Positions 4,402-64,000 are shown, counted from the stretch's first letter. The stretch is 64,000 nt of DNA from a virus (IMGVR_UViG_3300032325_000466:127028-191027), one strand, 5' to 3'. Made by a program: numbers and translations. Notes: generated by a model from the letters alone, not told the origin.

Positions 4402-4932
4402 ATGGCACAAGAAATTATTAATATTGGCGCGCAAGCGAATGACGGTGAAGGTGACCCCCTACGCACGGCCTTTACTAAAGTAAATAACAACTTTACTCAG
4501 TTATTTGCTACTGCATATAATACTGCTGAAGTAATCACTTACGGGAATACTGCTCAAGAGATTTTTAGTATCTCTGCAAATGCTTTTACTCAAGGCATAT
4601 TTCAAATTAACTCAGTTGCCGCTAATACATCAGATAGTCAAAACATCACTATAACTGCTGCTATTAAAGATGACCAAACAGGAGTAAAATACACTGGCCA
4701 CAGCGCACTATTTAATGGTAATGCTATAACTCAATACAGCATGATAGTAGCAGATAGTAATGTAATACTGTTAGTTAATCCCTTTATAACAGGTCAAATG
4801 ATCAACTTTATAAACTATCAAGTAACTTATAATAATGCAGTTCCTGGAATGAGTTTAGCACTAAATCAATCTCCTACAAATGTTCTAGGAACAGAATATC
4901 TACAACCTATTACTACTCAGCAGGCGTCATGA
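4402..4932 (+). CDS. Virion/baseplate protein with gp9/gp10-type N-terminal motif
   Basis: ANDGEGDPLRTAFTKVNNNF motif; late promoter upstream. Confidence 0.65.
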   Translation: MAQEIINIGAQANDGEGDPLRTAFTKVNNNFTQLFATAYNTAEVITYGNTAQEIFSISANAFTQGIFQINSVAANTSDSQNITITAAIKDDQTGVKYTGHSALFNGNAITQYSMIVADSNVILLVNPFITGQMINFINYQVTYNNAVPGMSLALNQSPTNVLGTEYLQPITTQQAS

Positions 4933-5303
4933 GAGCTAAAGAGTTTATAACTGAACAAAACAAGTTACCTGATCGAATTACCAATCCATTACCTGCTACT
5001 TGGGTAATACCAGAGTTACAAAATCAAAATGCATATTTACAATATAGATTTTCTGTGGCATTGGCCGGTGCACGAGCGGCTCGCAACGGCGATATACCTA
5101 AAATAGATAAAGATACGGTTTGGGGAGAAAATCAAATCGTATCAGGCTACATGAATCCAGATATAGAAGAAGATATTGACTTTGCTTTAGGTGAAATGGG
5201 CCTTAAAGGTAAATTATTAGTCACTAGTAAAGAAAGTGAAGAAACAAGTGATACCGATATCCACAGTCCTTTAAATCCTTTTGCGGGATACAAAAGAAAA
5301 TGA
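4929..5303 (+). CDS. Putative internal head protein, paralog 1
   Basis: Begins MRAKEFITE (capsid-targeting-like); ends PFAGYKRK. Confidence 0.6.
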   Translation: MRAKEFITEQNKLPDRITNPLPATWVIPELQNQNAYLQYRFSVALAGARAARNGDIPKIDKDTVWGENQIVSGYMNPDIEEDIDFALGEMGLKGKLLVTSKESEETSDTDIHSPLNPFAGYKRK

Positions 5304-5677
5304 GAGCCAGTGAATTTATAACTGAAGCTAAGATGGGTAAAATATCCAAACATCAACAACAACCTACCCGCGGGTTAAATATTTTTACAAAGAAAATGGA
5401 TACTTATGATAAGCTATATGATTTAAATCGTTTAATGATGGCTGTCGCAAGTAGCGATGGTATAAACCCAATAGAAATGCCTGCTGAAAGTTGGGTAGGT
5501 AAACACAACACGGCACATGCTTACACTAAAGAAGAACAAGCTATGCTTAATATGGCATATAAAGCGGCTGGCTTAGAGTATATAGATTTAAATAATGGTG
5601 ATTTAGATAGCGAAGAACTATCTGATACAAATACTCAAAGTATAGTAAAACCATTTAAAGGCTATAAGAAAAAATAA
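5300..5677 (+). CDS. Putative internal head protein, paralog 2
   Basis: Begins MRASEFITE; ends PFKGYKKK. Confidence 0.6.
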   Translation: MRASEFITEAKMGKISKHQQQPTRGLNIFTKKMDTYDKLYDLNRLMMAVASSDGINPIEMPAESWVGKHNTAHAYTKEEQAMLNMAYKAAGLEYIDLNNGDLDSEELSDTNTQSIVKPFKGYKKK

Positions 5678-6962: not shown

Positions 6963-8516
6963 ATGAGTAAAACTGGAACAGCCTCACTAGTTAAAAACCC
7001 ATATGTAAAGACCCACTTCGCCAATCAAACGCAGTTAGATGATTTTATGAAGTGCTGCGATCCAGTTACTGGATATCTTTACTTTATGAGTAATTTCTTC
7101 TACATACAGCACCCAACTAAGGGTAGTATGGCGTACCAGCCATGGGGCTATCAAAAGCGACTAATCGATACTTATCATAATTATCGTTACTCAATATCAC
7201 TTATGCCTCGACAAAGTGGTAAATCTACTTCGGCTGCTGGGTATTTGCTATGGTACGCTATGTTCGTACCTGACTCTACTATATTAGTTGCTGCACACAA
7301 ATATACTGGCGCACAAGAAATTATGCAGCGTATTAGATATGCATATGAGAATTGTCCAGATTATATCAAAGCAGGTGTAACAACATATAACAAAGGGTCA
7401 TTGGATTTCGAAAATGGTAGTCGCATTGTTTCAGCAACTACTACTGAAAATACAGGTCGTGGTATGTCTATCACACTGTTATACTTAGACGAGTTTGCGT
7501 TCGTTAGACCAAGTATTGCTAAAGAATTTTGGACTGCTATAACTCCAACTCTATCCACTGGCGGTAAGGCGATTATCACTTCAACTCCAAACTCAGATGA
7601 GGATCAATTTGCTTTTATTTGGAAAGGCGCTAACAAAACAGAAGATGAGTTTGGTAATACTACCCCAGTTGGAATAAATGGATTTAAAGCATATCGAGCG
7701 CATTGGAGCGAACAGCCAGGCAGAGATGAAAAATGGGCTGAGGGAATGAAAGCCCAACTTGGAGAAGATCGTTTCAATCGAGAAATAGGATGCGAGTTCA
7801 TTATTGCTGATGAAACACTGATTAATCCAAATACTCTTATTCAACTTGAGGGAATTGAACCCGTTACCCGTATAGGACAAATTCGTTGGTATAAAAAACC
7901 TGAAAAGGGCAATATCTATTGTGTTGGACTAGATCCCAGCATTGGTACAGGCGGCGATCCTGCTGCTATACAAATATATGAAGCAAATACTACTACTCAA
8001 ATTGGTGAGTGGAAGCATAATAAAACTGATATTCCTAATCAAATTAAACTACTATCACAAATAAACAAGTATATTGTAGAATGCACCGATGAACCCGATA
8101 ATCTTTACTATTCAATAGAGAATAATTCTATAGGCGAAGCCGCACTAGTATCACTCAATGAATATGGGGAACACAATATACCAGGTGCTTTTTTAAGCGA
8201 GCCAGGTAAAAAGCGTAAAGGTTTCACTACAACTAATAAGTCTAAAATACAAGCTTGTGCCAAGTTCAAAACACTAGTAGAAAATAAAAAACTAAAAGTA
8301 AATAGTCGCAGTCTTATATCTGAATTAAAAGCATTTGTAGCAAGTGGTGGTAGTTATGCGGCCAAAATAGGTGATACCGATGATTTAATTATGGCTACAC
8401 TATTGGTTGTTAGAATGTTTCAACAACTAAGTGATTATCATTACAATTTAGAAGAACAAATTAAAGACCACAGTGAATTTTTAGCTCCGCTACCCTTTTA
8501 TGCAATATTAGGATAA
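6963..8516 (+). CDS. terL: Terminase large subunit (T4 gp17-like)
   Basis: Q motif WGYQ, Walker A PRQSGKS, Walker B LYLDEFAF, GLDPSIG nuclease Asp, DDLIMA. Confidence 0.96.
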   Translation: MSKTGTASLVKNPYVKTHFANQTQLDDFMKCCDPVTGYLYFMSNFFYIQHPTKGSMAYQPWGYQKRLIDTYHNYRYSISLMPRQSGKSTSAAGYLLWYAMFVPDSTILVAAHKYTGAQEIMQRIRYAYENCPDYIKAGVTTYNKGSLDFENGSRIVSATTTENTGRGMSITLLYLDEFAFVRPSIAKEFWTAITPTLSTGGKAIITSTPNSDEDQFAFIWKGANKTEDEFGNTTPVGINGFKAYRAHWSEQPGRDEKWAEGMKAQLGEDRFNREIGCEFIIADETLINPNTLIQLEGIEPVTRIGQIRWYKKPEKGNIYCVGLDPSIGTGGDPAAIQIYEANTTTQIGEWKHNKTDIPNQIKLLSQINKYIVECTDEPDNLYYSIENNSIGEAALVSLNEYGEHNIPGAFLSEPGKKRKGFTTTNKSKIQACAKFKTLVENKKLKVNSRSLISELKAFVASGGSYAAKIGDTDDLIMATLLVVRMFQQLSDYHYNLEEQIKDHSEFLAPLPFYAILG

Positions 8517-8555
8517 TTCATACTTTAGATAAATATTTAATAACTTGAGTAAATT

Positions 8556-11500
8556 ATGCCAAAGAATAACTCTTCAATCAACAATTCGCTATTTGACCTA
8601 CTAAAAGGCAGGGGATATTCTCCCACAATGCTTAGTACCGCGGGTAAAGAAATACCTACCCCTGATGAAGCTGAAGTATTTCAGTTTAATTTTGTAAAAG
8701 ATGGGGAAGATTATGGTAAAGTAACCCTAACAATAGATGATTCCAGTAACCTGATAGTGTATTATAGCGACGATGTTGCTGACAGTGAAAAAGGTAATGG
8801 ATCAACTTATGATTGGGATGATTTTATTGACAAAGTAAAAGACTTTAAGAAATCCAAAAAAACATCCAAATTGAAAGAAGAAGATGATGATGATGAGGAC
8901 TTTAAAAGTGAAGGTGGTGATTTATCTTGGTATGGTTTATTAAATCAATTAAAGCGTTTCGCACAAAGATATCAACTAAGCTTTGAACTTAGAAACACAG
9001 ACAATCTAAAGTCTGATATGGCCAAAAGAGATTATATGAAGAAACAAGACCAAATTTCAGAAAGCAAAAACCATAGTATGGCGGAAGGTTACTCACTAAA
9101 GAAAACTAATGTTGAAAAAACATTTGATCCAGGTGATCCTGATGAATACACACAAGATGTCAATACAACATATACTGATTACGAAATTATCAACAATAAG
9201 ACAGGTCAAGTAGTTGGAACTGCTAGTTGGACTACTAATGATTTTATGGGCCCAGGAGCACTAAAGATTACTATGAAGAATGGTGCTACTAGATGGTTAG
9301 ATATTTGGGAACGAGAAAAGGGTAATCCACAAACAGCATTCAATCGTTTTGTTAAAGATCCCAAAACTGCTAAGAAGTATAAAGAACAAGATAATAAAGG
9401 TGTAACAGAAATGGACAATCGTACCCCAAGTGGTGATCGCAGAGAACAGCGTGCCAATAGCCCAGAAGAAAAAGCAAAGCGTGAAAAAGAACAACAAGCA
9501 AATCTAAAAAAAGTAAGTCCAAAAATGCGCGAAAAATTACGCTTACCTGAACCTAAAGAAGATATGGCAGAAGGCACTGAAAGTATTCTTGCTCGTGGCA
9601 CAGAGGTAACTGTTCCACACAGAGGCAAAATGGTGCCAGGCAAAATTCTTAGATATGTTGCTGGTAAAGGTGGCTATTCAGATGCTTATGTAGTTGATAT
9701 TGGTGAGTATGAGTCCCTGACTGTACCAACATTTAATGTTAAAACTCAAGTTATGGCGGAAGCCAGCGGTGATCAAGTTAAAAAAGTGTTTAAGAAAAAT
9801 GGTAAGCCAGTAGGTGAAGTTGGTATTGATCCAGAAGCAAGTCCGGGCGTTGGTCAATGGTATATGAAGTGCTATCAATACAAAATAGATAATAGTGGCT
9901 ATGACTCATACGAAGAAGCTGTAGAAGAATTAAAGTATTGTATGAAGCAAGGTATGGTGGAAGCACGAAATCCAGAAGACTTCATCAAGGATATTAAAAA
10001 TATTCCCTTACGCCAACGCCAACGAATTGGCAAGTCATTAATCAAACATGCTGAGGAAGCAGGATTAAGGCCTGAAACAATAAAAGTGGGTTATAGTGAA
10101 ACAACTGGGGTTTATCAGGTCACCGGTCTAGCCATGAAACACGGTGCGAAATACGACTGGAGATACAAGTCTGACCCGGCTACTAATAAAATGGTCTCTC
10201 TTGATGCCATGCAATCTGATACTGAGTATGCCCCTGATAAATTTATGCCAATCGTATTTGATAAGTTAGATGAGCAAGATATGGTGAAAGGCACTGAGGA
10301 CTCAACTCAAGTATTAAGCGATATTGTTGCTAATGACGATTTTGATGCATTGTATGACTTAATGTCGTCTAATACTGAAGCAGGTAAAATTGTTCAACGA
10401 ATGTATAACGATGTTGCTGGTGAAGAAGGCTTACATCCAGATGATGATTTTGAACAGATTCTAAACCGTGTGTTTGATCACCTGTCACAAGATTATGGTC
10501 AGCAAGGTATGGAGGAAGGCTTAGGCAAAGATATCAAGCGTTTGGCTACAGGCAAAGATGTTAAAAGTCGTGCTGGACAAGAAATAGCCAAGTCACAAGA
10601 TGCCAGTATGAAGGGCGATACTAAAACTTCTAAAAAGCATTTTGACCGCTATGATAAACTAGATAAGTTAGCAAACAAAGGTATGGCGGAAGGCTGGAAT
10701 AAGGGACGCCGCGCCGCAGATGTGGATCGGGATGACAATAAAGACCCAGACGATTCATTAGATCAACTCATTGATCTGCAAGGACAAAGGGATTGGTTTG
10801 CTAAAATGAGTAAGCCTAAGAATATGAGAAACGGCCGCCAGAAGCCAGCTAAGGATGCTATAAAAAGGTTACCAGTGGCGGAAGGAGCTATAAAGAAATT
10901 ATCAAAGGGCGCAAAGGTGTATCACACACTTCATGGTACTGGTACTGTTATTGACTTCTCAACTGGTCCTGCTGCATCTCATTGGGTAGATGTGAAATTT
11001 ATCAAAGACGGAAACAAAGGCAAGCCTACTAGGGTTGATCGTAAGCAACTTAAGTTAGCAAAAGTTGAAAGTATGGCCGAAGGCTATTATGGTGATGATC
11101 GTGGTGATTATAGAAAAACTGCTAGGGAAGCAAATGCTGCATCTAGGTTGGCAAAATCATCAAAAACTCATGCTGAGGCCGCCCGCCTACATAATTTAGC
11201 AGCAACATATGCGCTATCAGCAGGCCAAGATCAGTCAGTAATACGCGACCATCAGATGGCAGCACATGAACATAATCAGGCTGCAAAAAAATATAAGAAA
11301 GGTATGGCGGAAGGCTACACTGTAACTCGTGGAATTGATACAGAAAGATATCAAGAACGCCCGGGATTGGAAGGTCCCTTTGCTACCAAAAGCGGTAAAG
11401 TTGTATACTATGACAAGCGTGAAGGAAAATACTACGATCCCGATACTGATATGTATATTGAATATGATGATTGGCAAGCTATGAATGAGCAAGATATGGC

Positions 11501-12635
11501 AGAAAGTAATCAACAAGTCAATGAAAGTTACTACCCAATGGGCAAACAAGGTAGCTATAGTGATGCTGTACCAACAACTAAAATCATTATTCAGCATAGC
11601 CGCAGAATAGAAGAAGGTGAGCAGCGTTATCGTAATATCGCTAAAATCTTTGTAGAAAACAGTGAAGGTGAGCGTTTTGCGGTACCAACTAATAAGCCAG
11701 GACTAGCCCGCGTATATGCCCGTCATATAGCAGAGGGTGGCACACCTTATGATGAGCGTGGCCGTCATATTACTTCATTAGTAGAAGAATATTCTAAAAT
11801 GTCTGGCTTTATGCGTGCCACAAGAGGCAAGCAGTTTAATGAGTCAGCACAGCAATTAGTAACCGAAGCTGTAAATTATTATCAAAGTTTGCGTGAAAGT
11901 TTAAGCAAGATGACAGGTCATCGTGGCTATTCAGCATACTTTGAAAGTTGGACACCTTCACTAATGGAAGATGGAGAAGAACAAGAAACCAATCTTAACG
12001 AACTATTCGTACAAGAAACCCTCGACCCCAGAATTGAAAGTGTAATGCCAATCTTAGGTAAGCTACAAAGAAAATTGGGCACCATAAAAGAAGTTGATGC
12101 ACTAGCAGAATGGGCTGATAATATTATTGAAGGTGATGGCGGACAAGAGGCTCTTACCCCACAAGGTATTCCTGAAGCTGCTGGTCCAGAAACTTTAGCT
12201 CATAATATAAGAACCGATCGTAGTAATCTAAAAGCATTTGACTTAGAAGAAACTACTGGTGTAACTGACTATAACCCAAAATCTCAGGGTGGTACTAGAG
12301 CAGAACTTCTTCGCAAATATGCTAACACTAAAAAGCCAAAAGATGCCGAAGCTGCAAGGCGTGCAGGTGCTAGCCAGTCAGAATTAAAAGCTGCGGCCGA
12401 TTCTACTGAAGAAATACATGAAGGTGAGCATGGTCTAGATGAAAACCTAGATGCTAACCAAATTAGTGCAGGACAATTGGGCCCTACAGAAAAAGCCAAG
12501 TCTATTAGTCCAGTATTAGGTGCTCAACCCAAACAGCATCCTTTTAAAGGCAAGTTAGTTGGTGCTGAAGAAAGCGTCAATGAAAGTGAAAATGAATTGG
12601 CTAGAATTTTACAAATGGTCAAGCATAAACGATAA
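8556..12635 (+). CDS. Large modular late protein with repeated MAEG junctions (putative processed head polyprotein)
   Basis: 1359-aa ORF behind TAAATA; 12 (G/S/D/V/P)(M/V)xEx-like junction motifs in the central third. Confidence 0.8.
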   Translation: MPKNNSSINNSLFDLLKGRGYSPTMLSTAGKEIPTPDEAEVFQFNFVKDGEDYGKVTLTIDDSSNLIVYYSDDVADSEKGNGSTYDWDDFIDKVKDFKKSKKTSKLKEEDDDDEDFKSEGGDLSWYGLLNQLKRFAQRYQLSFELRNTDNLKSDMAKRDYMKKQDQISESKNHSMAEGYSLKKTNVEKTFDPGDPDEYTQDVNTTYTDYEIINNKTGQVVGTASWTTNDFMGPGALKITMKNGATRWLDIWEREKGNPQTAFNRFVKDPKTAKKYKEQDNKGVTEMDNRTPSGDRREQRANSPEEKAKREKEQQANLKKVSPKMREKLRLPEPKEDMAEGTESILARGTEVTVPHRGKMVPGKILRYVAGKGGYSDAYVVDIGEYESLTVPTFNVKTQVMAEASGDQVKKVFKKNGKPVGEVGIDPEASPGVGQWYMKCYQYKIDNSGYDSYEEAVEELKYCMKQGMVEARNPEDFIKDIKNIPLRQRQRIGKSLIKHAEEAGLRPETIKVGYSETTGVYQVTGLAMKHGAKYDWRYKSDPATNKMVSLDAMQSDTEYAPDKFMPIVFDKLDEQDMVKGTEDSTQVLSDIVANDDFDALYDLMSSNTEAGKIVQRMYNDVAGEEGLHPDDDFEQILNRVFDHLSQDYGQQGMEEGLGKDIKRLATGKDVKSRAGQEIAKSQDASMKGDTKTSKKHFDRYDKLDKLANKGMAEGWNKGRRAADVDRDDNKDPDDSLDQLIDLQGQRDWFAKMSKPKNMRNGRQKPAKDAIKRLPVAEGAIKKLSKGAKVYHTLHGTGTVIDFSTGPAASHWVDVKFIKDGNKGKPTRVDRKQLKLAKVESMAEGYYGDDRGDYRKTAREANAASRLAKSSKTHAEAARLHNLAATYALSAGQDQSVIRDHQMAAHEHNQAAKKYKKGMAEGYTVTRGIDTERYQERPGLEGPFATKSGKVVYYDKREGKYYDPDTDMYIEYDDWQAMNEQDMAESNQQVNESYYPMGKQGSYSDAVPTTKIIIQHSRRIEEGEQRYRNIAKIFVENSEGERFAVPTNKPGLARVYARHIAEGGTPYDERGRHITSLVEEYSKMSGFMRATRGKQFNESAQQLVTEAVNYYQSLRESLSKMTGHRGYSAYFESWTPSLMEDGEEQETNLNELFVQETLDPRIESVMPILGKLQRKLGTIKEVDALAEWADNIIEGDGGQEALTPQGIPEAAGPETLAHNIRTDRSNLKAFDLEETTGVTDYNPKSQGGTRAELLRKYANTKKPKDAEAARRAGASQSELKAAADSTEEIHEGEHGLDENLDANQISAGQLGPTEKAKSISPVLGAQPKQHPFKGKLVGAEESVNESENELARILQMVKHKR
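9075..11507 (+). repeat. Dispersed in-frame repeat, consensus AAGGTATGGCGGAAGGC
   Basis: Copies at codons starting 9075, 9399, 9561, 9750, 9951, 10278, 10506, 10680, 10872, 11070, 11301, 11493; 19-nt identity at 10677-10695 and 11298-11316. Confidence 0.85.
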
Positions 12636-12767: not shown

Positions 12768-13340
12768 ATGTTATTTAGTAAAAAGCATCTACCCGCGGGA
12801 TTTTATGTGTATTTTTGGATACGAGTAAAAGATTCCCCCATTGCTAAGGCAGGCACTCCTTACTATGTAGGAAAAGGTAAAAATATTAGGGCTTGGCGAA
12901 AGGATAAGCATGGAAAAGATAAATTGGTCATTATTGCAGAATCAAACCTTACTGAATTGGGGGCTCTTTCATTAGAAAGGCGTTATATCGAATGGTATGG
13001 TAGAAAAGATTTAGGTACTGGGATACTTAATAATAAGACTGATGGGGGAGAAGGTGCTACTAATTTTAAAAAATCGTATATAAGAAAAAAGAGGTCCATT
13101 GCCACAACTACATTAATGAGTCTTACCAAACTTGGCAAAAAATACCCTAAAATAAGTGAGGCGCTTAAAGGTAAATCTAGGGGAATCAGGACTACTGAAT
13201 GGAAAAATAATATTGGACTCGCTAAAAAAGGTAAAAAGATATCTCCCCAGGAAGTAGTACAATGCCCACATTGTAGTAAGGTAGGAGGCAAATCTTTACT
13301 AACTCGGTATCATTTTCAAAATTGCAAATTTATTAAATAG
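12768..13340 (+). CDS. Free-standing GIY-YIG-family homing endonuclease
   Basis: FYVY...PYYVGKG...R, E...[18 protein letters not shown]; NUMOD-like basic repeats; C-terminal CPHC...RYHFQNCK. Confidence 0.8.
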
Positions 13341-62383: not shown

Positions 62384-63010
62384 ATGAAAAGTTTAAAGCA
62401 TTATATAGTTGAATCTGTTCGCACATACAACTACACCATTAAAATTGCCGGTGAAGTAGATAAGAATTTTATTGAGTTGTTTAAATACAACCTTAATAAG
62501 TTTGATCCAGTTAAAATCAGTGATCCCGTAACAACACCTATTCAAAAAGATCCATATGGTTTTCCTAACTTATCCAATCAGAGTGTTACTATCATTAAAG
62601 CAGAATTTCGTTATCCAACCACTGAACCAATGATTCAACAAACGGTCCAATTACTTGGTTACAATGTGAATATGGTTAGAGTTATTTCCAGTGCTTATGA
62701 TGATAGCATCAACAGTGAAGCAGAAAGTTACGCTAATGAAATGAAGAATAGTCCAGTGCTTACTCATGAAGAAATGGGTGAACAACCTGGTGCTAAAGAA
62801 GCTAGCAAAGCATATGGTGGATCTTATTTGGGAAGTATCAAAGATCAAATGAAGGGATCAACTATTGATATCCCTTATGATGGTAAAAAGACTCCCGCTG
62901 CATTCGACCCGTTCAAACCATATTTAGACGACAAGAAATTGGGTGATAAGAGCCCAATGACTACAATAACACGCCCACCTAAGCCAAAAACTGGCTCGAT
63001 GGCCAAATAA
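62384..63010 (+). CDS. Probable head-associated late protein
   Basis: MKSLKHYIVE|S propeptide-like start; TAAATA upstream. Confidence 0.65.
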   Translation: MKSLKHYIVESVRTYNYTIKIAGEVDKNFIELFKYNLNKFDPVKISDPVTTPIQKDPYGFPNLSNQSVTIIKAEFRYPTTEPMIQQTVQLLGYNVNMVRVISSAYDDSINSEAESYANEMKNSPVLTHEEMGEQPGAKEASKAYGGSYLGSIKDQMKGSTIDIPYDGKKTPAAFDPFKPYLDDKKLGDKSPMTTITRPPKPKTGSMAK

Positions 63011-63023
63011 GAGGATTATTAAA

Positions 63024-64000
63024 ATGGATTTCAAAAAACTATTATCACAGCTAGACCAGTTACATGAAGCCGATGTTAAACACAAAGGCACCTATGGCAC
63101 TTCATACCAAGGTGATGACGATGAAGATGACGACAAAAAAACAGCGCCTGCTCCAACTGAAAAGCGTGGCCGTGGTCGTCCAAAGAAAGCTGGTGGCGCC
63201 GCTGATACTTCAGCCAAATATAGTGGTGCAAAAGATTTGCAATCGATGATAGTTGGTAATGTTCCTAAAGATAGTAAAGAATTAAAAAATCTTCCAAAGA
63301 CTAAAAACAAATTATCCGATGAAGAACCTAAGAAAAAGAAAAGCACTACTGAAAGTCTAAAAGATTGGATAGCTACTATTGATGAGCAGCGTATGTTAGC
63401 AGAAGCTGGCTTAGCTGTACAACCAATTGGTAAGCCAGGTCAAAACTTTCTAATTAAAGATCCTGCAAATCCATCAGCCTCAGCAATCACTACTAGCGAT
63501 CCAGCAGTAGTTGATGCTGCTAAAAAAGGTACATTATCAATGCAGAAGCCAGGTGCAGCACCAGCAACAGGTGCAGGCTCACAAGTTCGTGCTATGCGAG
63601 AAGGTGAGGGTTCAGGTAGTAAAGAAGAATTAGCAAGACGAATTTATGACTTAGGATTCTCGATTCACCGCAACCTTGGTCCAGGTGATCCAAAAGAGTA
63701 CGAGTTACTTGACCAATTAAAAGCTCAATTCGCTCAACAATTCCCAGGTGAAGATCCCTTTAAAATTGGAGGAGAAGCTTCGCGCAAGGCTAGCAGCGCA
63801 GCTGCCGACCTTGCAGCTAGCAAACTTCCAAAACGAATGTTTGGTGGAAATACAAAACCAATGTTTGGTCAACGAAATGAATCTATGCGAGAAGGTGAGG
63901 GTTCAGGTAGTAAAGAAGAATTAGCAAGACGAATTTATGACTTAGGATTCTCGATTCACCGCAACCTTGGTCCAGGTGATCCAAAAGAGTACGAGTTACT
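63024..64000 (+). CDS. Partial late protein with AT-hook and duplicated module (runs off the window)
   Basis: My translation: MDFKKLLSQLDQLHEA...KRGRGRPKK...MREGEGS; no stop before 64000; GAGGA RBS. Confidence 0.85.
   Translation, partial: MDFKKLLSQLDQLHEADVKHKGTYGTSYQGDDDEDDDKKTAPAPTEKRGRGRPKKAGGAADTSAKYSGAKDLQSMIVGNVPKDSKELKNLPKTKNKLSDEEPKKKKSTTESLKDWIATIDEQRMLAEAGLAVQPIGKPGQNFLIKDPANPSASAITTSDPAVVDAAKKGTLSMQKPGAAPATGAGSQVRAMREGEGSGSKEELARRIYDLGFSIHRNLGPGDPKEYELLDQLKAQFAQQFPGEDPFKIGGEASRKASSAAADLAASKLPKRMFGGNTKPMFGQRNESMREGEGSGSKEELARRIYDLGFSIHRNLGPGDPKEYEL
63592..64000 (+). repeat. Exact in-frame direct repeat, period 291 bp
   Basis: 63592 onward equals 63883-64000 (118 bp visible). Confidence 0.92.

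Follow-up and report, generated by a model that had tools for sequence, protein, structure and literature searches.

Here we describe a cassette-built polyprotein gene in a 64,000-nucleotide stretch of viral DNA (IMGVR_UViG_3300032325_000466:127028-191027; henceforth referred to as the window), which forms the final 64 kb of a contig of 191,027 bp (38.6% G+C) with a CheckV completeness of 54%, implying a genome of roughly 350 kb. The gene product (P0001; 8556..12635, + strand) is 1359 amino acids (aa) long and is encoded by a single open reading frame (ORF) with no internal stops. We consider it probable, at about 0.66, that an uncultured T4-like jumbo phage, apparently from a lake, has in this polyprotein a head-internal source of small cargo proteins, which its prohead protease cuts apart, and that the junction between the units of the polyprotein is also a crossover point. 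According to this reading, a backbone virion protein, in which a single protease site links an N-terminal domain of 169 aa to a C-terminal core, would have received 11 unrelated cassettes at that site, each bounded by (K/E/Q)-Q-(G/D)-(M/V)-x-E|(G/A) (here and below the bar marks a predicted cut). The N-terminal domain would bring the precursor into the prohead core, like the T4 capsid-targeting sequence (CTS) and the long propeptides of giant phages; a gp21-type protease would cleave after each Glu, so freeing the N-terminal domain, the cassettes and the core inside the capsid, and the small proteins would remain with the DNA and exit with it at infection. Comparison of relatives shows the junction word of ~20 nucleotides (nt), RAR CAA GRT RTG GCG GAA GGY, to be the place at which cassettes are exchanged, deleted, duplicated and moved, whether from one position to another, from gene to gene or across diverged phages. 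The likeliest route is short-homology recombination or template switching in a recombination-driven T4-type replication cycle, and repeated crossing-over at the word would keep it uniform.

A broader proposal, which we hold tentatively and at slightly less than even odds, is that the junction is a dual-purpose element, in that an in-frame word of ~20 nt would be both a head-protease site and a crossover point maintained at the nucleotide level. Such a word would give T4-like jumbo phages a community-wide pool of interchangeable capsid-cargo cassettes (>1000 clusters for one cassette), which could be placed in series after any targeting leader or within any head protein already present, to form a self-shuffling combinatorial library of injected proteins. 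Among the small proteins carried in the T4 capsid are anti-restriction factors, and the origin and fast turnover of these small proteins are not well understood; the proposal, if true, shows how T4-like giant phages make and renew the small proteins that they carry into the host. It would also define a very large, bounded set of uncharacterised mini-proteins that rank high as candidates for functions in early host takeover or anti-defence, provide a rare case of a protease site that is also a recombination site, with domain shuffling inside one frame, and offer a natural multi-cargo format for loading several proteins into T4-type capsids from one gene.

The cassette array and its backbone

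A word-indexed search returned 594 homologues of the backbone, 747-1751 aa in length. Among the 120 homologues listed, the N-terminal domain (aa 1-169; 8556..9062, +) is present in 118 and the C-terminal core in all 120, and the middle modules are present in only 2-20 each. The core and tail (aa 984-1359; 11505..12635, +) form, with the N-terminal domain, the conserved backbone and match phrog_13484, 'virion structural protein'. In the commonest form of the family, of ~750 aa, the N-terminal domain abuts the core via KKQxISE|GYYPMGK. In the window protein the same domain ends in KKQDQISE|S at residue 169, where 64 BLAST high-scoring segment pairs stop, and this site (QDQISE|S) is a 13th, beyond the 12 junctions described below. 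Cultured homologues carry VSE|S (gp278 of Pseudomonas phage PA5oct) or LSE|SYLAE|G (Vibrio phage 2.275.O) at the same place, and gp278 is annotated as virion-associated by electrospray ionization tandem mass spectrometry (ESI-MS/MS). Since the basic ~750-aa form has KKQxISE|G between the N-terminal domain and the core, the array occupies a pre-existing hydrophobic-x-E site. The N-terminal domain is a candidate long targeting propeptide and, by analogy with such propeptides, may direct the precursor to the prohead. Searched with the polyprotein, the cultured phages gave no match at the nucleotide level, and tblastn matches to them were confined to the core and one cassette, M11.

The original prediction, made from the window alone, had divided the centre of the ORF by 12 in-frame junctions into 11 mutually dissimilar modules of 108, 54, 63, 67, 109, 76, 58, 64, 66, 77 and 64 aa. 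All 12 lie where it had placed them (SMAEG 9075, GVTEM 9399, DMAEG 9561, VMAEA 9750, GMVEA 9951, DMVKG 10278, GMEEG 10506, GMAEG 10680, PVAEG 10872, SMAEG 11070, GMAEG 11301 and DMAES 11493), the sizes are as it gave them, and the best cross-match between modules has an E-value of 0.04 under very permissive BLAST settings. The first two junctions, counted from the 13th site, are separated by an 8-aa spacer, SKNHSMAE (9063..9086), which is followed, all on the + strand, by M01 (108 aa; 9087..9410; segment family 6), M02 (54 aa; 9411..9572; rich in Lys, Arg and Glu and without aromatic residues), M03 (63 aa; 9573..9761), M04 (67 aa; 9762..9962; segment family 9) and M05 (109 aa; 9963..10289). 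M06 (76 aa; 10290..10517) is acidic, with a net charge of -16, and precedes a run of basic modules comprising M07 (58 aa; 10518..10691), M08 (64 aa; 10692..10883), M09 (66 aa; 10884..11081) and the Ala-rich M10 (77 aa; 11082..11312). The last module, M11 (64 aa; 11313..11504; phrog_13298), has a predicted four-strand meander plus helix and a weak OCRE-like match. Net charges range from -16 to +7 and masses from 6.4 to 12.5 kDa; cassettes of 6-12.5 kDa fall within the size range of the T4 internal proteins.

Domain and fold searches gave the modules no recognisable function. The polyprotein has no Pfam family at E <= 0.01, the one weak match, to OCRE, being below threshold (E = 0.017), and a search of the ESM Atlas with M01 returned no usable match. 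The AlphaFold2 model of M11 is a compact domain with a predicted local distance difference test score (pLDDT) of 76, the termini of which are disordered at the junction residues; a WW-like fold for M11 was rejected, as comparison with the PDB gave only partial overlaps at E > 0.7. The model of the C-terminal core has a pLDDT of 65, and an RNase H-like fold was likewise rejected on weak matches with a template modelling (TM) score of about 0.15.

Exchange and DNA-level conservation at the junction

To follow the cassettes between relatives, 190 non-identical family proteins were cut at the motif, the pieces were clustered and the neighbours of each cassette were counted from the clusters. The pieces form cassettes of constant length (for example 108, 67, 76, 63, 83 and 89 aa) and 323 non-backbone cassette families, 99 of which have at least two members. 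Neighbours vary freely: the M01 family, of constant length (105-108 aa) in 19 family proteins, has 10 different left and 6 different right neighbours, the M04 family, always of 67 aa, has 9 and 7, and M11 has 8 and 10. The order in P0001 is M01-M02-M03-M04-M05-M06-M07-..., as against M02-...-M06-M04-M01-...-M09-M10 in P0002 and M01-M02-M07-M05-M09 in P0003, and in some lineages cassettes, M04 and M11 among them, lie C-terminal to the core. M05 is 99% identical in P0003, even though the P0003 backbone is only 66-75% identical. Divergence of the C-terminal tail swamped plain breakpoint analysis, and breakpoints were read instead by segment clustering with a shifted-cut control: 50% of segment matches run end to end with cuts at the true junctions, compared with 29-36% when the cuts are moved by 15-25 aa.

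Locus searches for the long relatives, with P0007 and P0004, and a single metagenome scan yielded few loci, and the tests at the DNA level thus rest on seven loci (L001-L004, L089, L090 and L092) and ~80 loci of the basic form. The backbone of L089 is 96-97% nucleotide-identical to that of the window, and its order is M04-M07-x-M06, compared with M04-M05-M06-M07 in the window; homology between the window and rearranged relatives stops inside the CAAGGTATG-NNG-GAA word. Synonymous divergence (dS) between the window and L089 is 0.14 in the backbone and 0.07-0.16 in the other shared cassettes, as against 0.62 in M07, which is at a different position. Between the window and L090 the backbone has a dS of 0.15, M10 (60% identical) one of 0.70 and M11 one of 0.67, and between the window and L004 the core has a dS of 1.68 and M11, here on the opposite side of the core, one of 0.64. 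The discordance, which runs in both directions, indicates that the cassettes have histories independent of the backbone. Overall, these comparisons of relatives show that the junction is the exact place at which cassettes are gained or lost and at which they are replaced or reordered, much as the original prediction had proposed; the orthologues are not colinear, their N- and C-terminal domains being conserved and the number and order of their modules variable.

The junction is also unusual in its codons. The pattern M[AV]E[GAS] is present 8 times in the polyprotein ORF, whereas the rest of the ORFs in the 191-kb sequence have only 2 copies between them; the 19-mer AAAGGTATGGCGGAAGGCT is present exactly twice, at 10677 and 11298 (0 expected), in line with the exact repeat noted originally, and all four copies of ATGGNGGAAGG in the window lie in the polyprotein ORF (0.05 expected). 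The alanine of (M/V)-A-E is encoded by GCG in 5 of 8 cases, compared with 5 of 95 alanines in the rest of the gene and with genome-wide shares of 8% of alanines, 3% of those before Glu and 3.7% of those after Met. Counting residues from the predicted cut, the P2 codon ends in G at 8 of the 12 junctions (GCG 5, GTG 2, GAG 1; 0.83 expected, Poisson-binomial p = 7.7e-8), and the P1' Gly is GGC at 6 of 8 (p = 0.009). The conservation at synonymous sites that had been proposed was thus confirmed against both gene and genome. It extends to other loci, some of which have synonymously saturated cores: among 42 junctions of unique context the P2 codon ends in G in 22 (GCG in 14 of 26 Ala, TCG in 5 of 5 Ser and ACG in 2 of 3 Thr codons), whereas in the background a G ends 3-6% of Ala, Ser, Thr and Val codons and 15% of Glu codons, and nearly all P2 variants are one substitution away from GCG. 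The consensus of 78 junctions is (K)(E/K/Q)Q(G/D)(V/M)(A/E/T/S)E|(G/A/S), or RAR CAA GRT RTG GCR GAA GGY in DNA. An exact scan of viral contigs for GRTATGGCGGAAGGC found at least 117 loci with one match each, which is consistent with chance for a 14-15-mer.

One alternative, which we regard as unlikely, is that the junction is a protease site only. Its conservation in DNA and its coincidence with breakpoints would then be by-products, with off-site recombinants purged and the rare NCG codons kept by, for example, translational pausing or recent common descent. Consistent with this, just P2 (NCG) and in part P1' (GGC) deviate from the common codons of the genome, which the other junction codons use, a third-base G at P2 is found in 41% of junctions family-wide and is not fixed, and the exact shared word is short. 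However, lineages with synonymously saturated cores show a roughly tenfold enrichment of GCG, TCG and ACG, so that recent descent alone is hard-pressed as an explanation, and it is inside the CAAGGTATG-NNG-GAA word itself, and not just at some point of the linker, that homology with rearranged relatives breaks off. There is also a T4-type precedent for short conserved motifs that mediate cassette exchange, namely the promoter early stem-loop (PeSL) elements (PMC2839356, PMC4122927). The tenfold enrichment argues for maintenance at the nucleotide level or for continual homogenisation by exchange, and is proof of neither. We infer that the junction word is a substrate of recombination. The double role put forward in the original prediction, as protease site and as site of recombination, thus stands in part: exchange at the junction, its conservation in DNA and the fit of the motif to gp21-type specificity are borne out, and the word may be either a selected recombination site or one that is just carried along and homogenised by exchange. 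Taken as a whole, that interpretation is partly supported.

Predicted processing by the head protease

The phage encodes a protease of the required type. A Peptidase_S77 gene (T4 gp21 family, PF03420; E = 2.8e-30) is located at G000:65663-66136(-) of the contig, in T4 gene order with a gp23-type capsid gene and a gp22-like scaffold gene, as expected of a phage with T4-type internal proteins. The scaffold, encoded between the protease and capsid genes, has 364 aa and 14 [LIVM]xE[GAS] sites. The N-terminus of the capsid protein carries LLE7|S, LLE19|G, ILE34|N and KKQLLAE43|SS shortly ahead of the part alignable with mature T4 gp23*, in which residue 46 corresponds to residue 15 of the mature T4 protein. 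Prohead proteases from both T4 and giant phages cleave C-terminal to a Glu that follows a short motif, and in the T4 CTS residues 8 and 10 (P3 and P1) control processing (PMC5694885, PMC9026906). Given this specificity and the KKQLLAE43|SS of the capsid propeptide, the junction KKQDMAE|G resembles the phage's own predicted maturation site. The protease would cut every junction, and the released pieces would be kept in the head and then ejected. No peptidase domain was found inside the polyprotein, and the stand-alone gp21 homologue is the candidate protease. A highly acidic 279-aa ORF that ends in SPVAE|SR lies outside the window between the portal-side genes and the protease gene (G000:66191-67030, -) and could be a gp67/gp68-like core protein.

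The cassettes also occur singly or in other proteins. There are 255 matches between the array and shorter proteins, and M01, M04, M06, M07 and M11 are present in proteins of 84-746 aa on contigs of up to 570 kb. M01 is found in 17 such proteins and M04 in 47 of 120, many of the latter with CTS-like leaders in front. A hydrophobic-x-E motif is present within the first 16 residues of 72 of 115 Met-starting cassette proteins, compared with 40 of 219 control ORFs of this genome; leaders include MKITDVVEG, MRFNEFNLNEG, MRADEFITEA and MKTLRDYINLIEN, and in MRFNEFNLNE|GYTV and MKIRDVKE|GYTV the cassette begins one residue after the leader Glu. The simplest examples are a leader joined to one cassette, namely M07 in P0178 (84 aa), M04 in P0182 and M01 in P0143. 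An exhaustive HMMER search with M11 gave 1046 clusters at 50% identity, 545 of them at E <= 1e-10, in proteins of 115-1926 aa in which M11 may take any position. In 129 M11 representatives (50% identity), the preceding residue is E in 112, the first residue G in 110 and P3 V, L, I or M in 90, and M11 lies directly behind a leader in 34 cases. A standalone relative of M11, KVP40.0154 (83 aa; L008:1414-1665), is found in the cultured T4-like Vibrio phage KVP40. Its start, MQGFKDYFKKGEVKLQE, could be a targeting leader with an LQE site, and KVP40 may thus be a tractable system in which to follow the packaging of M11-type cassettes.

These results bear on a second alternative, which we judge similarly improbable, in which the polyprotein is an uncleaved beads-on-a-string virion protein, the junctions of which are flexible linkers and the domains of which shuffle like the Ig-like domains of phage surface proteins. 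In its favour, the PA5oct homologue is annotated just as 'virion structural protein', with no processing reported, and the motif is found within the folded core as well. However, the putative linker has the gp21-type form, with a hydrophobic P3 and a Glu at P1, and matches the capsid propeptide KKQLLAE|S; the same cassettes begin exactly after the Glu of CTS-like leaders elsewhere; and the cassettes are unrelated in sequence and in charge (-16 to +7), unlike repeated structural domains.

Several observations weigh against the interpretation of the array as protease-cut, exchangeable head cargo. Beyond this gene, the 54% of the genome that is sequenced has no sites of the MAE type, and the capsid protein and scaffold have L, I or V at P3, so that acceptance of Met at P3 is only inferred. 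Two copies of the motif, RIEEG and HIAEGG, lie within the folded core, and the motif is therefore by itself no proof of cutting. Where a T4-type internal protein has a short CTS of 10-20 aa, the polyprotein has a conserved domain of 169 aa with QISE|S at its end. Exact identity between junctions extends over only 11-19 nt, and so short a word is ill suited to classical homologous recombination. The relatives compared are all metagenome assemblies, in which chimeras via near-identical cassettes could explain some architectures. Finally, the core has no fold match and M11 no significant match in the PDB, and hence no function backs the label 'effector'.

The two remaining alternatives fare considerably worse. 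It is very improbable that the array arose by fusion of once-separate small genes, with MAEG as the relic of an N-terminus (ATG GCG GAA GGC...) and its Met as a former or current internal start. An ATG is present at P3 in 10 of the 12 junctions and single-cassette genes exist (P0178, P0182, P0143), but across the family Val is no rarer than Met at P3 (42 V vs 36 M), conservation includes residues that precede the Met (Q at P5, G/D at P4), cassette homology begins after the Glu and not at the Met, standalone versions open with a CTS-like leader and not with MAEG, and there is no Shine-Dalgarno spacing upstream of the junction ATGs. Internal translation starts at these ATGs were rejected for two of these reasons, the frequency of Val at P3 and the start of homology after the Glu. 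Least credible of all is an assembly artefact, in which assemblers would have joined strains via shared cassettes or junction repeats: every compared sequence is indeed metagenomic, but assemblers usually work with k-mers longer than the repeat word (<=19 nt), every relative has the ORF uninterrupted over 4 kb, the same constant-length cassettes recur in hundreds of independent samples and sources, chimeric joining alone cannot yield the dS discordance, and the cultured phage KVP40 has the standalone relative of M11.

Precedents and neighbouring genes

The array is a variation on the theme of the T4 internal proteins, a diverse set with only the CTS in common (PMC3012670), the CTS being seen as an evolutionary device to load varied proteins (PMC9026906). 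It shares with IPI, IPII, IPIII and Alt (PMC3012670, PMC9026906, PMC5694885) a gp21-family protease within a head module of T4 type, proteins that are small, diverse and quick to evolve and that are sent to the prohead core (here as a prediction), and cutting after hydrophobic-x-E (here also predicted); like the genes of the internal proteins, its cassettes also occur singly behind CTS-like leaders. However, the T4 proteins are encoded by separate genes with one leader each, a CTS of 10-20 aa, whereas here a conserved virion protein holds 11 units in a single frame, with a domain of 169 aa at the head of the series and, between the units, a repeated putative cleavage site that is conserved in DNA too. 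The importance of this variation is conditional on proteomic confirmation.

A second precedent is provided by the polyvalent proteins (Iyer, Burroughs, Anand, de Souza and Aravind 2017, PMC5512222), large multi-domain proteins (2-15 domains) of highly variable content that are encoded beside head or packaging genes and are proposed to be packed in the virion, processed and injected. The polyprotein resembles them in that its 13 segments lack mutual similarity and TerL lies immediately upstream, and its relatives sometimes carry ParB_N, Sigma70 r3/r4, SLT, LysM, RMF-like or methyltransferase cassettes. However, recognisable conflict enzymes are the defining feature of polyvalent proteins, in which a zincin-like metallopeptidase (MPTase) for autoprocessing is often embedded, whereas the window protein has no Pfam domain, no conflict-effector domain and no embedded peptidase, sporadic known domains being found in relatives only. 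Its units are separated by a uniform predicted site for a stand-alone head protease, and a conserved inter-domain DNA word does not form part of the description of polyvalent proteins. Recognisable domains are rare in cassette-bearing proteins in general (ParB_N, RMF-like, Sigma70 r3/r4, GP88, DUF6321, DUF7230, LysM, SLT, AT-hook and methyltransferase). The backbone-family relative P0033 contains Sigma-70 region 4 (E = 2.4e-17), P0237 an RMF-like ribosome-modulation match just under the Pfam cut-off and P0194 a ParB_N match at the cut-off, and these matches hint that some cassettes of the pool may serve in host takeover.

PeSL cassettes (Arbiol et al. 2010, PMC2839356; PMC4122927) are likewise found in T4-type phages, in which short DNA motifs flank small variable units of unknown function and insertions, deletions and replacements between close relatives break at the motifs; in the family described here the breakpoints of close relatives also lie at a short conserved motif that flanks variable units. 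PeSLs, however, are intergenic regulatory elements (a sigma-70 promoter plus terminator) between separate early genes, whereas the junction motif is coding and in frame within a single stop-free ORF of one possibly late gene, is thus not an intergenic promoter or terminator, and doubles as a putative protease site. Finally, the inner-body and ejection proteins of phiKZ, 201phi2-1 and SPN3US (PMC5694885, PMC7411985, PMC10052503) comprise many head-internal proteins of giant phages that have propeptides of >100 aa, are cut several times after the Glu of a short motif and are ejected into the host as cargo (all three here predicted). They depend on another protease lineage, with the motif (S/A/G)-x-E, and form paralogous families, not strings of unrelated cassettes, and shuffling at their sites is not described. 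The original prediction knew of no description of such a system, and full-text literature searches found no report of in-frame, unrelated cargo units split by a head-protease site that doubles as an exchange point; the claim of novelty is nevertheless narrowed by three close precedents, the T4 internal proteins with their CTS, the polyvalent proteins and PeSL shuffling.

The polyprotein gene is flanked upstream by the TerL gene (6963-8516; gap of 40 nt) and downstream by a homing-endonuclease-like ORF, the SSB gene and the UvsX gene; the order TerL, polyprotein gene, SSB, UvsX is common to Pseudomonas phage PA5oct and Vibrio phage 2.275.O. A T4 late-promoter-like box, GATAAATA (8527..8534, +), which resembles the consensus only, is located 22 nt before the polyprotein ATG, and the exact word TATAAATA is not enriched within the window. 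The homing-endonuclease-like ORF (190 aa; 12768-13340, +), between the polyprotein and SSB genes, has weak similarity to phrog_655 and phrog_15526. In the close relatives L001 and L002 the polyprotein is followed by a long ORF that resembles the start of SSB, and the homing-endonuclease-like ORF is missing, which suggests that it is a mobile insertion. A role for this ORF as shuffling agent is unsupported, as relatives with shuffled arrays lack it.

Elsewhere in the window, two tandem small ORFs (4929..5677, +), the first of which starts with the T4 CTS-like leader MRAKEFITE|Q, and a 208-aa ORF (62384..63010, +), which starts with the CTS-like leader MKSLKHYIVE|S, are candidate classical internal proteins of this phage. 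A second cassette-type protein (63024..64000, +), cut by the end of the contig, has the leader MDFKKLLSQLDQLHE|A, followed by a basic low-complexity stretch and by the module GEGSGSKEELARRIYDLGFSIHRNLGPGDPKEYEL..., which is present twice, each copy after an xMRE|GEG junction. This protein is homologous to P0170, an M04-carrying protein of a 348-kb relative.

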